Source of the DNA: Escherichia phage ECA2
Length of the DNA stretch: 38,890 nt
Direction: 5' to 3' (one strand)
Sequence record: NC_047766.1
In this document: one piece after another, positions 9,801 through 17,847 of the stretch
How the letters are laid out: each line of letters begins with the position of its first letter
How positions within the stretch are numbered: position 1 is the stretch's first letter
The notes under the pieces: model-generated
What the model saw: only the letters and a program-made list of their open reading frames with translations
Database searches by the model: none
What the model was told of the DNA's origin: nothing
Program-made: the position numbers and the translations under genes

Positions 9801-10784
9801 TCAAACTACATTCTTGATGCTGCCCGTCAGGGTGTGCTTGGGGATGTGGCTGGAGCGGCCCTTGCTGGGAAAGCCTCTAAGTTCGGTAAGGCAAACTACC
9901 TTAAGTCTGCCTCTATCAGCCCTGAGCAGTGGAATGGAATCAAGCAGTTGTTCAGAGACTATGCGACTCGTGGAGAAGACGGTAAGTTCACCATTCGTGA
10001 CAAACAGGCTTTCGCTAACGACCCACGTTCAATGGACTTGTGGAGACTGGCCGACAAGGTGGCGGATGAGACTATACTGCGCCCTCACAAGGTTTCCTCA
10101 CAGGACTCCAAAGCGTTCGGTGCAGGGGTGAAGATGGTGATGCAGTTTAAGAACTTCGTCATCAAGTCCCTTAACTCCCGGTTCGTCCGTAGCTTCTATG
10201 AGGCAACGAAGAACAACCGTGCGTTAGACCAAGCGTTGACTCATATCATCTCCTTGGGTCTAGCTGGTGGTTACTACGTTGCGCAGGCACACCTTAAGGC
10301 CGCAAGCCTACAGGAGCACAAACGTAAGGAGTACCTCAAGAACGCCCTTGACCCTAAGATGATTGCTCATGCATCAATCTCCCGTAGTTCACACTTAGGC
10401 TCACCATTGAGTATCTACGACATGTTCGCTGGGATGGTTGGTAGCGATACCTATAAGTACACCCGCTCTACTGTACTCCCTAAAGAGTCCGAGAAGCGTG
10501 ACCCTACCAAGGCAGTGACAGGTAGACAGGTGGCTTCAACTATCGCAGGTGCAGTTGGTGAGCAGGTTCCGGGTTTAGGTTTTGTGGGTTCTGTGGGCGC
10601 AACAGCCATTAACGCCGCTTCCCTGCTGTCTTCTCCAAACAAGGCTACCGCTCTGGAGTTCCGTACAGGACTCTTCAACACCTCTCGTGAGTTGATTCCT
10701 AATGACCCGCTATCGCAGCAACTCATTATGAAAATCTACGAGGCCAACGGTATCCGCATAAAGGAGACGCCGAAGAAACAATAA
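6822..10784 (+). CDS. 16: Internal virion protein D (gp16) with N-terminal lytic transglycosylase domain
   Basis: 1320 aa; N-terminal SLT-like motif (AFNESSFNP...GPKGLMQFTKGTA); synteny. Confidence 0.93.
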   Translation: MSYDKNKPSEFDGLFQKAADKHGVSYDLLRKLAFNESSFNPKAKSPTGPKGLMQFTKGTATALGLKVTDADDDDRYNPELAVDAAARHLSDLIRKYDGDELKAALAYNQGEGRNGAPQMQAYDKGDWASISEEGRNYMRNLMDVANSPRKGDLEAFGGITPKAKGIPSGDAFAGIGKKQTVGTDLPESTGFKVEGTEQKAPNVPYAKDFWEKTGTTLDEFNARSTFFGIGDAISAELHNSVLGVAFRAARSDDGFDLFKDTITPTRWNSHTWTPEELERIRKEVKNPAYINVVTGGSPENLDALIKMANDNYEMDARSADAGVGAKLTAGIVGAGVDPLSYVPLVGVAGKGLKVVNKAFVVGTQSAGLAIASEGIRTSIAGGEAHYADAALGGLMFGAGMSAISDAIAAGIRRSRGTEVVNDFAPMAHRLEARETALNSGGEDLTRMPSENRVFDREHAGVEYSPLETEPGAVVLPQGQILSDTNPLNPQTLSEFEAVNPERAASGISLGGFTEIGLKTLRSENPTVRSIASDLVRSPTGMESGSNGKFGATASDIKERLHANNQRTYNQLYDAVRTAMKDPEFSTGGATMSRKEIRQEIYKRAALAIERPELQANLTKGERNVMNILKQHFDLKREIMENPSIFGNTKAVSIFPGSRHKGTYVPNVYDRAIKIEMVKRYGNDGLQRAIAESWLTSYRARPEVKARVDEYLMELNGLKSVQEVTPEMVQKHAMDKAYGISHTDQFSASSVIEDNIEGLVGIENNNFLEARNMFDSDMAVTLPDGNTFSVNDLRTYDMAEILPAYDRRVDGDVAIMGGSGKTTKDLKDEIMALDKQSEGNGTLKGEVEALKDTVKILTGRARRNPEGAWGTALRSVNDLTFFAKNAYMGAQNVTEIAGMLAKGNVSAITHGIPMINDWVNRGKPLRASEIKEIHGMVFGKELDQLIRPGREDHVRRLRESTDTSAAVANVVGTIRFGTQELAARSPWTMLLNGTSNYILDAARQGVLGDVAGAALAGKASKFGKANYLKSASISPEQWNGIKQLFRDYATRGEDGKFTIRDKQAFANDPRSMDLWRLADKVADETILRPHKVSSQDSKAFGAGVKMVMQFKNFVIKSLNSRFVRSFYEATKNNRALDQALTHIISLGLAGGYYVAQAHLKAASLQEHKRKEYLKNALDPKMIAHASISRSSHLGSPLSIYDMFAGMVGSDTYKYTRSTVLPKESEKRDPTKAVTGRQVASTIAGAVGEQVPGLGFVGSVGATAINAASLLSSPNKATALEFRTGLFNTSRELIPNDPLSQQLIMKIYEANGIRIKETPKKQ

Positions 10785-10806
10785 ACCCTCACTAAAGGGA
10801 GAGAGG
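10780..10806 (+). promoter_or_regulatory. Phage RNAP promoter phi17
   Basis: AATAAACCCTCACTAAAGGGAGAGAGG. Confidence 0.88.
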
Positions 10807-10855
10807 TCACATTCTGGCCTCTTCTCTCCTAATGCTAATTTACAAAGGAGGTCAC

Positions 10856-12544
10856 ATGGCTACAAATATTAAGACCGTGATGACTTACCCGCTGGATGGC
10901 TCCACTACGGACTTTAATATTCCGTTTGAGTATCTGGCTCGTAAGTTCGTCCGAGTGACCCTTATCGGTGTTGACCGAAAGGAACTCATCTTGAATCAAG
11001 ACTATCGTTTTGCAACTAAGACCACAATCTCAACAACGAGAGCGTTGGGGCCAGCGGACGGTTATAACATGGTTGAAATCCGTCGATTTACCTCCGCTAC
11101 CGATAGGCTGGTTGACTTCACCGATGGTTCAATCCTTCGGGCATACGACCTGAACATCTCTCAGGTTCAAACCCTTCACGTTGCAGAAGAGGCTCGTGAC
11201 TTAACGGCTGATACCATTGGTGTGAACAACGATGGCAACCTTGATGCTCGTGGTCGTCGTATCATAAACGTAGCTGATGGTGTTGACCTCGGTGATGTTA
11301 TCACTTTAGGTCAAGTCACTCGGTGGAATGAGTCTGCCCTGAACTCTAAGAACGCCGCTGCTACCTCTCAGGCCGCTGCCAAGACCTCAGAGACCAACGC
11401 TAAGACCTCAGAGACCAACGCTAAGACCTCAGAGACCAACGCTAAGACCTCAGAGACCAACGCTAAGACCTCAGAGACCAACGCGTACCAATGGGCGCAG
11501 CGTGCAGAGGACTCTCCGGTGCAGGGTAGCGAGTTCTCCTCATATCACTACTCACGCAAATCCGCTAAGAGTGCTGCCGCCGCGAGTGTTTCTGAAGATA
11601 ATGCTAAGGTGTCCGAGAATAACTCGAAGACCTCTGAGACCAACGCTAAGACCTCTGAGACCAACGCTGCGGCCTCTGCTCAGACAGCTAAGGATGAGGC
11701 GGCTAAGCTGACCAACATGAATGACTTTGCTGCCGCTATTGATTCAGTCAACGGTAACAATGTTGTCATGAAGGGTGACTTCACCATTAAAGGAAACGGT
11801 AAAGTATCAATACTGAACCACAGTGGGCTATACCAAGATAAGACCGTGAATGGCGTGAACTATGCCAACAGGATTTATATGGATGATGCAGGGGCCATGC
11901 ACTTCGAGAACTACCGTGTGTCTGGTACTTCATCCACCTTACGTGCTGGTTTTGTTATTACAGATACCAACAGGTTTGACTTTACAGGGCCAACGCAAGT
12001 TAATGGTGATATCATCGCATATGTGAATGCGCCCCCTAATCCAGCTATTGGTCAATACCTCAATTCTGTGGCAGTTCGCTCACAGCTTCGGGGCCGTGGT
12101 GCTGAGAATGATCCACTTGGTGCGTACTGTGGTATGTATATTCAGGAGCACGTTGGTACAGACCACGCGATAATCCTTAACCTCAATGGTTTTAGCAAGG
12201 ATACTAACTGGCAGCTATTCTCCAATGGTAAAATATCTACACCACTTGGTGATGTGATGACTTCAGGTTCTGATGTTAGAATCAAGGATGATATCACTAA
12301 ACCTCTTGATGGTGCTGGTGAGCGTATTGACGCAATTGGCATAGTGGAATACACAGAGATTGCCACCGGGGAACGTAAACGTGGGTGGCTGGCCCAACAG
12401 CTTGACACGATTGACCCGCTGTACACATACCTCACGACCACCGCAGAAGGTAGTCTTTTGAATACCAACGACAGGGCGTTGCTTGCTGACGTAATAACTG
12501 AGCTTCAGGCACTACGTCAACGCGTTAAAGAACTCGAAGGATAA
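10856..12544 (+). CDS. 17: Tail fibre protein (gp17), mosaic: T7-like N-terminus, repeat-rich shaft, distinct distal region, C-terminal S74-type chaperone domain
   Basis: Start ATG 10856 with RBS AAAGGAGGT; N-terminus MATNIKTVMTYPLDGSTTDFNIPFEYLARKF matches recalled T7 gp17; C-terminus has SDVRIKDDI...RKRGWLAQQLD...VKELE. Confidence 0.9.
   Translation: MATNIKTVMTYPLDGSTTDFNIPFEYLARKFVRVTLIGVDRKELILNQDYRFATKTTISTTRALGPADGYNMVEIRRFTSATDRLVDFTDGSILRAYDLNISQVQTLHVAEEARDLTADTIGVNNDGNLDARGRRIINVADGVDLGDVITLGQVTRWNESALNSKNAAATSQAAAKTSETNAKTSETNAKTSETNAKTSETNAKTSETNAYQWAQRAEDSPVQGSEFSSYHYSRKSAKSAAAASVSEDNAKVSENNSKTSETNAKTSETNAAASAQTAKDEAAKLTNMNDFAAAIDSVNGNNVVMKGDFTIKGNGKVSILNHSGLYQDKTVNGVNYANRIYMDDAGAMHFENYRVSGTSSTLRAGFVITDTNRFDFTGPTQVNGDIIAYVNAPPNPAIGQYLNSVAVRSQLRGRGAENDPLGAYCGMYIQEHVGTDHAIILNLNGFSKDTNWQLFSNGKISTPLGDVMTSGSDVRIKDDITKPLDGAGERIDAIGIVEYTEIATGERKRGWLAQQLDTIDPLYTYLTTTAEGSLLNTNDRALLADVITELQALRQRVKELEG
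11378..11482 (+). repeat. Five tandem copies of a 21-bp unit (GCTAAGACCTCAGAGACCAAC) encoding AKTSETN heptads in gene 17
   Basis: Four perfect copies plus one with a single mismatch; diverged copies at about 11600-11665. Confidence 0.95.
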
Positions 12545-12584: not shown

Positions 12585-12788
12585 ATGCTTTCTTTTGACT
12601 TCAATAACGAGGTCGTTAAGGCTGCGCCGATTGTTGGCACAGGGGTCGCTGATGGTGCGGCCCGACTCTTTTGGGGACTATCGTTAAACGAATGGTTCTA
12701 CGTTGCAGCTATCGCCTACACAGTGGTTCAGATTGGTGCCAAGGTAGTCGATAAGATGATTGACTGGAAACGTGCAAATAAGGAGTAA
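12585..12788 (+). CDS. 17.5: Holin (gp17.5)
   Basis: 67 aa; MLSFDFNNEVVKAAPIVGTGVADGAARLFWGLSLNEWFYVAAIAYTVVQIGAKVVDKMIDWKRANKE closely matches recalled T7 gp17.5. Confidence 0.95.
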   Translation: MLSFDFNNEVVKAAPIVGTGVADGAARLFWGLSLNEWFYVAAIAYTVVQIGAKVVDKMIDWKRANKE

Positions 12789-16453: not shown

Positions 16454-16690
16454 TCTCACAGTTCAAGAACCCAAAGTACCCCCCCATAGCCCTCCTAAAG
16501 CCACCTAAAGCCAGCCCTACCCCTCTGGTTTAACCTTCGGTTAACCTTGGTATCTCCTAAAGTGGCCTATAGGATAGCCTAAAGTGTTGCCTAAAGTCAA
16601 TCCCTAAAGTGATGGCTGCCTATTGGAGACTTAAAGAGTGTCCTAGTGTACCAGTTCGATAGTACATCTCTATGTGTCCCTATCTGTTAG
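16454..16690 (+). repeat. Direct terminal repeat region; probable physical left end at about 16454 (single collapsed copy)
   Basis: Begins TCTCACAGTTCAAGAACCCAAAGTACCCCCCC and ends near GTGTCCCTATCTGTTAG, resembling T7/T3 terminal repeat boundaries; boundaries approximate. Confidence 0.55.
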
Positions 16691-16699
16691 CCTCTTAAA

Positions 16700-16790
16700 G
16701 TAAACCCTAAAGCCGCCACCTAAAGACCAGACCTAAAGCCACCACCTAAAGACCAGACCTAAAGCCACCACCTAAAGAGCGCCGCTATCT
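16700..16790 (+). repeat. Short-repeat array (CCTAAAG units, including a duplicated 26-bp block) right of the terminal repeat
   Basis: Repeated CCTAAAG / ACCTAAAGACCAGACCTAAAGCCACC units. Confidence 0.85.
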
Positions 16791-16855
16791 TAAAGACAAC
16801 CAGACCGATAGACCCACTGTTAGCCTGTAGTGATGCCTTGTAGTTATCTGTAGTC

Positions 16856-16884
16856 AATTCAATTACCCTCACTAAAGGGAATAG
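16856..16884 (+). promoter_or_regulatory. Phage RNAP promoter phiOL
   Basis: CAATTCAATTACCCTCACTAAAGGGAATAG. Confidence 0.75.
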
Positions 16885-16935
16885 AGGATACTTAAAGAGG
16901 GAATAAGGGATTTAATACAAGATTTAAATTAATGG

Positions 16936-17481: not shown

Positions 17482-17847
17482 ATGGCTATGTCTAACATGA
17501 CTTACAGCAACGTTTTCGCCCACGCTTACGAAATGCTGAACGAAAACATTCGTTATGATGATACCCGTGACACTGATGGTCTTAGTGACGCAATTCATGA
17601 GGCAGCAGATAGCGCCGTTCCGCACTATTACAGTGACATTTTCAGTGTAATGGCAAGCGATGGCATTGACCTTGAGTTCGAAGATTCCGGTCTTATGCCG
17701 GACACCAAGGACGTGACCTGTATTCTACAAGCACGCATCTATGAGCAACTCACGATTGACCTTTGGGAAAAAGCTGAGGACTTACTCAACGAATACCTTG
17801 AGGAAATCGAAGAGGAGGAAGAGGAAGTCGAAGAGGACGAAGAGTAA
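17482..17847 (+). CDS. ocr: Ocr (gp0.3) DNA-mimic anti-restriction protein
   Basis: Start ATG 17482 with RBS GAGGT; [27 protein letters not shown]...acidic C-terminus matches recalled T7 Ocr. Confidence 0.92.

Follow-up and report, generated by a model that had tools for sequence, protein, structure and literature searches.

A variable-copy 21-bp tandem array encoding heptads in the tail-fibre shaft gene of Escherichia phage ECA2

Gene 17 and its tandem arrays

The stretch of DNA analysed, hereafter the window, is the whole 38,890-nucleotide record of Escherichia phage ECA2 (NC_047766.1), in which a tail-fibre gene (gene 17, product gp17) carries two arrays of 21-bp units, termed A and B. The principal features of the locus are:

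10780–10802, plus strand: T3-type late promoter, phi17-like, AATAAACCCTCACTAAAGGGAGA, overlapping the last codons of gene 16 (sequence read).
10856–12544, plus strand: gene 17, tail-fibre protein of 562 aa plus stop (open reading frame, Shine–Dalgarno site, Pfam, PDB match, starts in relatives).
10856–11320, plus strand: N-terminal tail-attachment domain, Phage_T7_tail, aa 1–155 (Pfam, Foldseek and PDB matches).
11378–11482, plus strand: array A, 5 × AKTSETN, aa 175–209 (sequence read, Tandem Repeats Finder, pattern search).
11603–11665, plus strand: array B, AKVSENN + SKTSETN + AKTSETN, aa 250–270, diverged, with TCT codons (sequence, Tandem Repeats Finder, pattern search).
12269–12418, plus strand: predicted Peptidase_S74 intramolecular chaperone domain, C-terminal (Pfam PF13884).

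The open reading frame as listed spans 10832–12544 (570 aa); its true start, the ATG at 10856, is preceded by a Shine–Dalgarno ribosome-binding site, AAAGGAGGT, and agrees with the annotated gene 17 starts in relatives. Gene 17 sits between a gp16-like frame (1320 aa, ending at 10784) and a holin-like, gp17.5 frame (67 aa, 12585–12788), an order with which the annotation of relatives agrees. The T3-type promoter lies 54 bp upstream of the start, where phiYeO3-12 has phi17 annotated. The N-terminal domain is matched by Pfam Phage_T7_tail (PF03906, E=1.5e-58, 197 bits against a cut-off of 25.2) and by the T7 gp17 structures 8dsp (Foldseek, 72% identity), 7ey9 and 7boz, the last at E=2.5e-84 over residues 1–321. 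At the other end, PF13884 scores 24.2 bits against a cut-off of 22 over residues 480–529 of the 570-aa frame, and the C-terminus is accordingly a predicted Peptidase_S74 intramolecular chaperone. In relatives with other distal modules (NL_ZS_3, RCF, Patroon), a separate small open reading frame directly follows gene 17. The assignment to gene 17 and to a tail-fibre "shaft", made beforehand from the letters alone in an earlier note on this DNA, is borne out by Pfam, the T7 gp17 PDB match, synteny and the AlphaFold2 helices described below.

For the rest of the genome, identity to Teetrevirus phages (Enterobacter phage E-4 and Yersinia phage phiYe-F10, for example) is 96–97%, and the window is therefore a complete T3-like (Teetrevirus) genome in permuted orientation. 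The assembly is circularly permuted, as the ends of the physical T3-like genome fall within it (16455–16900). Part of these ends, near 16455, reads TCTCACAGTT...CCCCCCC; clusters of the heptamer CCTAAAG stand at 16494–16513, about 16555–16610 and 16706–16778 (a 26-bp unit, 2.8 copies), and a T3-type promoter, AATTACCCTCACTAAAGGGAA, is found nearby at 16860–16880.

Array A consists of five head-to-tail 21-bp units, 105 bp in total. Unit 1 (GCCAAGACCTCAGAGACCAAC, 11378–11398) carries one synonymous mismatch, GCC for GCT, and units 2–5 (11399–11482) are four identical copies of GCTAAGACCTCAGAGACCAAC, so that the codons read GCC AAG ACC TCA GAG ACC AAC once and GCT AAG ACC TCA GAG ACC AAC four times. 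Each unit encodes AKTSETN, in frame within the 10856–12544 reading frame. Tandem Repeats Finder scored array A as the strongest tandem array in the window (period 21, 5.0 copies, 100% matches, score 208). The unit pattern with at most three mismatches occurs seven times in the window, five times in array A and twice downstream, against an expectation of 0.00 in 100 dinucleotide-preserving shuffles. We took a tandem repeat to be at least three head-to-tail near-identical units with a length that is a multiple of 3, and array A is one. The repeat is real and non-random, and sequence read, Tandem Repeats Finder and reading frame agree with the four perfect copies and one single-mismatch copy, in frame in gene 17, that the earlier note had described.

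Diverged copies with TCT codons, which that note had placed about 120 bp downstream, are present as array B, and the gap between the end of array A (11482) and the start of array B (11603) is 120 bp. Its first unit (AKVSENN, 11603–11623) is more diverged than the two after it; the second (11624–11644) has three mismatches to the array A unit (TCG.. and TCT), and the third (11645–11665) one, TCT for TCA. A 69-aa open reading frame in another frame (11502–11711) is a Pro/Arg/Leu-rich reading of the repeat and was rejected as a gene. Elsewhere in the window, the early region holds a further tandem array of in-frame length at 17800–17844 (GAGGAAATCGAAGAGGACGAA, period 21, 2.1 copies, 91% matches).

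Predicted helices and heptad register of the shaft

The fold of gp17 was predicted with AlphaFold2 as a monomer, using a 43-sequence alignment. In the model, the N-terminal domain (before residue 151) is beta-rich and is followed by a shaft with these parts:

11306–11500, plus strand: predicted shaft helix 1, aa 151–215, register a = Ala/Val, d = Ser/Trp (AlphaFold2, register table).
11492–11551, plus strand: conserved interruption WAQRAEDSPVQGSEFSSYHY, aa 213–232 (AlphaFold2, register, conservation in 38 and 28 homologues).
11540–11737, plus strand: predicted shaft helix 2, aa 229–294, with strands from residue 295 (AlphaFold2).
11699–11743, plus strand: hinge segment, with K284, L285 and N289 invariant in the alignment (alignment, megablast, T7 hinge 250–280).

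Array A falls entirely within helix 1 and array B within helix 2. Block pLDDT of helix 1 is 93–97 over aa 161–210, and values exceed 90 over both arrays. The non-helical stretch of the shaft covers aa 216–228, including EDSPVQGSEF, and the heptad phase jumps by 5 residues across this central interruption. In helix 1 the core comprises nine consecutive heptads, with position a occupied by V and then eight A, and position d by W, seven S and W; in helix 2, a is S/A/L and d is S/E/M. The model thus shows a shaft that is predicted to be helical and in heptad register. An Ala/Ser core of this kind is unusually small and polar, and atypical for a stable coiled coil. The interruption belongs to a 20-aa motif, W-A-x-x-A-E-D-x-P-V-x-G-x-E-[FY]-S-[AS]-Y-H-Y, that is conserved in many gp17-type fibres; it lies 28 to 124 residues from the N-terminal domain, mostly in 7-residue steps, and is present twice in some homologues (e.g., P0144 and P0152).

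The AlphaFold2 model and the alignment with T7 gp17 show the layout of a T7-type fibre: a helical proximal rod, then a hinge, then a strand-containing distal part. In T7, the proximal section of gp17, which is without experimental resolution, has been described from AlphaFold, MD and AFM as a torsionally compliant triple-helical coiled coil, and the fibres alternate between capsid-bound and extended states by way of rod and hinge (bioRxiv 10.1101/2025.10.22.683886; PMC13485008), the hinge being residues 250–280 (bioRxiv 10.1101/2025.10.22.683886). PDB entries cover T7 gp17 residues 1–164 at most in this region, leaving the shaft without a solved structure. Because our model is a monomer and solved structures extend only to residue 164, we infer the trimeric coiled-coil state of the window shaft by homology with T7. 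A Foldseek search matched the N-terminal domain only and gave no match for the shaft, and Pfam at E<=1 gave no YadA_stalk (PF05662) or Phage_fiber_2 (PF03406) match on the window protein; matches to Utp14 and Saf4 were set aside as sub-threshold low-complexity noise.

Each 21-bp unit encodes a single heptad, A-K-T-S-E-T-N (Ala in position a, Ser in position d), of what homology with T7 makes a triple coiled coil. As the unit is exactly one heptad, its gain or loss disturbs neither frame nor heptad register, so that such a change would be tolerated.

Copy number in close alleles

Megablast of gene 17 against 50,697 phage records returned two full-length relatives, Klebsiella phage Poynor (PQ299797) and Pantoea phage vB_PdeP_F1M1C (OL744209; F1M1C below), both about 98% identical in nucleotides to the window gene outside indels. 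Their fibres are of the same type as that of the window over the whole length and share the array A unit sequence; that of F1M1C differs in a divergent patch of array B and hinge and in a truncated C-terminus. Array A has five units in the window, three in Poynor (one with a Thr-to-Ser change) and four in F1M1C, with flanks that are about 98–100% identical and 0–6 mismatches between the window and either relative in the 100-bp blocks beside it. Each unit of the F1M1C array (one GCC.. unit, then three GCT.. units) has a base-identical counterpart in the window, whose array is the same plus one GCT unit. The earlier note had named an invariant copy number in related phages as the finding that would speak against it; the three related alleles hold 5, 3 and 4 units. 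Its proposal of a recent expansion by slippage or recombination also stands, in that a one-unit gain is the simplest reading of these counts amid near-identical flanks.

Three near-identical alleles with three copy numbers imply that copy number changes faster than point substitutions accumulate, a pattern that, judged from these alignments, looks like the signature of slippage or unequal recombination. We consider it probable, with good confidence, that array A is a coding tandem array in the alpha-helical rod of gp17, a triple coiled coil by homology with T7, and that it has recently gained one unit over the F1M1C state. Units would be gained and lost repeatedly, by slippage during replication or by unequal homologous recombination among them, and the window allele would be an F1M1C-type four-unit state plus one identical unit, with a rod 7 residues longer. 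Slippage or recombination is the presumed mutational mechanism, and any phenotypic effect is likewise presumed. The identity of the units could instead reflect gene conversion (homogenisation) and not one recent duplication.

Fresh duplications of independent origin occur in other lineages: Erwinia phage pEp_SNUABM_12 and Dickeya phage W2B each carry a 42-bp double unit two times over, NL_ZS_3 has three array-B units that are identical, and an AAASQQA heptad is doubled in NL_ZS_3 and RCF. In 231 homologues, x-K-x-S-E-x-x heptads form runs of 0 to 12 units, and strict [AS]KTSE[TN]N runs reach at most four, which makes the window's five the longest seen.

The allele itself was sought in larger collections. 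Exact-sequence look-up found neither possible gp17 product in large protein collections, and the exact two-unit DNA pattern had no match in IMG/VR. A degenerate pattern spanning the passage from array A into the central motif recovered only two already known Dickeya phage genomes and no metagenome contig. When the C-terminal half was run against a word-indexed protein collection (E<=1e-30), no match came back, though near-identical genes occur in the phage collection; the first search of this kind listed only proteins of <=525 aa, so that its index seems to pass over the nearest relatives. No publication on variable heptad numbers in gp17 turned up in literature searches. The five-unit allele is new to the collections searched; the kind of element is already known.

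Parts of the shaft also vary beyond copy number. Across array B and the hinge (11556–11755), the window and F1M1C are 76–80% identical, as against 99–100% on both sides, and Poynor is 99–100% identical to the window across the same stretch. This mosaic patch points to a probable short recombinational replacement inside the shaft. The annotated gp17 of F1M1C (L002 325–1896) is 523 aa long, and its resemblance to the window breaks off some 100 bp ahead of the stop codon of the window gene; an additional open reading frame of 66 aa comes next, and the F1M1C gene may carry a frameshift or deletion in the S74 chaperone region. The Logan contig SRR24079949_33539 (L012 950–2413) holds a fibre gene 98–99% identical to that of F1M1C in which an in-frame deletion of 204 bp (68 codons) fuses array A to array B and removes the central interruption. 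The fusion may be a genuine variant with a short shaft, or else an artefact of k-mer assembly.

Both the mosaic patch and the 204-bp deletion joining arrays A and B would fit a role at the level of DNA, in which the repeats serve as short homology tracts for exchange of fibre modules between co-infecting phages and shaft structure is secondary. Homology to most relatives likewise stops just past array B and the hinge, their megablast matches ending at gene positions 836–911 (window about 11667–11742). These break points, however, fit the conserved hinge motif at least as well as the arrays, and any conserved stretch would be equally useful for recombination. The units are moreover strongly conserved as protein in heptad register, which indicates a structural role, and we regard the DNA-level explanation as improbable.

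Shaft length across the family and comparison with known systems

Shaft length was divided into "pre", from the conserved Trp that closes the N-terminal domain to the central W..YSAYHY motif, and "post", from this motif to the hinge KLxNxN. The near-relative sample comprised 38 homologues drawn from a word-indexed search and phage records. All their pre and post values differ by multiples of 7, and 29 of the 38 share a shaft total of 120 aa, reached through four layouts of pre and post: (35,73), (42,66), (49,59) and (56,52). None of 100,000 permutations placed 29 homologues at a common total, and pre and post are negatively correlated (r = -0.75, kinship ignored). Six further named phages all have a shaft of 120 aa. 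The window shaft (56,59) measures 127 aa and that of Poynor 113 aa; among the 60 best records from tblastn of the phage collection, none has the window's span and most are 7 aa shorter.

When 1.84 billion representatives clustered at 50% identity were searched exhaustively with HMMER, 28 with the central motif were found, with shafts of 120 (seven), 127 (seven), 134 (five), 141 (three) and 148 aa (one), and five off the lattice. On the 120+7n lattice lie 23 of these 28, against 1/7 expected (kinship ignored). Their pre and post lengths give r = -0.87, and the standard deviation of the total is 10.6 compared with 27.1 if the parts were independent, again with kinship ignored. Representatives without the central motif peak at 108, then 101 and 115, and 37 of 51 lie on a 108+7n lattice (1/7 expected). 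The idea of a shaft fixed at 120 aa family-wide was dropped, as 127, 134 and 141 aa are common in distant relatives among these representatives. Rod length changes almost only by whole heptads, and the place of the interruption varies more freely than the total. A value of 120 aa is fixed only among near, enterobacterial relatives, and the window's 127 aa is a viable length in more distant ones.

The notion that copy number sets shaft length, also put forward in the earlier note, was upheld in part: copy number does vary among relatives, but near-relative totals are mostly held at 120 aa. With compensating changes elsewhere in the shaft, the copy number of one array is not freely turned into shaft length.

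The count of five units in the window is itself unconfirmed, and the near-relative lengths bear on whether the assembler added a unit to a true array of four with the canonical 120-aa shaft. The window departs from the 120 aa of its near relatives by exactly one unit, four base-identical units form a cycle in de Bruijn graphs at k below about 85, collections hold no independent copy of the window gp17 protein, and the odd A-to-B fusion in the Logan k-mer contig affects a closely related fibre. Yet the 105-bp array is shorter than ordinary short reads, and read threading normally resolves such a length; given the array's size, the assembly hazard is real mainly for small-k assemblers. Natural three- and four-unit alleles in independently sequenced phages and the 127-aa shafts common in more distant relatives also argue against an artefact, to which we give little credence. 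A genuine one-unit gain remains the preferred reading.

What the extra unit would do can be estimated from canonical coiled-coil geometry, with its rise of 0.148 nm and phase drift of about 3.7 degrees per residue: one additional heptad would make the rod about 1 nm (roughly 5%) longer and turn the distal parts by about 26 degrees. The capsid-bound/extended switching of T7 fibres would be a plausible reason for a constraint on length. This raises the question of selected length tuning, with array A as a contingency-like locus whose copy number adjusts the reach or orientation of the fibre, and with it adsorption or host range. In keeping with it, copy number differs with the isolation host, Klebsiella for Poynor versus Pantoea for F1M1C; the total is far more constrained than its parts in both samples, suggesting that length matters to fitness; and T7 fibres must switch between their two states through the proximal rod. 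The distal receptor-binding part is nearly alike in the three phages, on the other hand, so that host differences may lie elsewhere, the conservation of the total argues for stabilising and not diversifying selection, and the close alleles number only three. Tuning of this kind therefore seems very doubtful.

Somewhat less doubtful, and still tentative, is the proposal that gp17 rods are under stabilising selection for a total on the heptad lattice, with an interruption that slides by compensating heptads, and that the window allele is an uncompensated, recent +1 intermediate. If so, one added heptad should measurably alter reach (about 1 nm), azimuth (about 26 degrees), the balance of stowed and extended fibres, or adsorption. 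An apparently conserved total rod length with a sliding interruption is the only mildly novel aspect of these data.

In practical terms, the copy number of the 105-bp repeat needs checking before gene 17 is used for typing, engineering or host-range inference. The window allele offers a snapshot of fibre rods that change length by whole heptads with frame and register kept, and the comparative data suggest that total rod length is constrained while internal layout drifts. Such a constraint would give a testable handle on the proposed mechanical role of the T7-type proximal coiled coil in fibre deployment.

The nearest well-studied system is gp17 of T7, which resembles the window protein in its homologous N-terminal domain (about 70–80% identity), its gene position and function, and a helical heptad shaft of about 110–130 residues ending at the conserved KLxNxN hinge. 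The T7 heptads are of the [FWY]-[RK]-[ND]-E type (FRNEAET, FRNQAEG, WRDETKG), unlike AKTSETN, and T7 has no nucleotide-identical tandem units such as those of array A. By the pre/post measure, its shaft belongs to the class without the W..PV.G.EFSAYHY interruption, with a modal length of 108 residues. Distally, T7 gp17 ends in a gp37_C-like tip (PDB 4A0T), whereas the window protein has a different distal region with Peptidase_S74; no gp37_C-like tip was found in window gp17, whose PDB match to T7 gp17 stops at about residue 300. The Peptidase_S74 end is absent from T7 and T3 gp17.

Coiled coils with size-variable, in-frame tandem units are familiar from the stalks of trimeric autotransporter adhesins (YadA_stalk, PF05662) and from streptococcal M proteins, where units are gained or lost by recombination or slippage and rod length changes with register kept. 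PF05662 is found among precomputed matches on several gp17 homologues. YadA-type stalks and M proteins are bacterial and built of longer repeat blocks, whereas the window encodes a phage virion fibre with a single-heptad repeat. Array A is an ordinary coding repeat of heptad units within a fibrous coiled coil, seen soon after the gain of a unit, and not a new kind of element.
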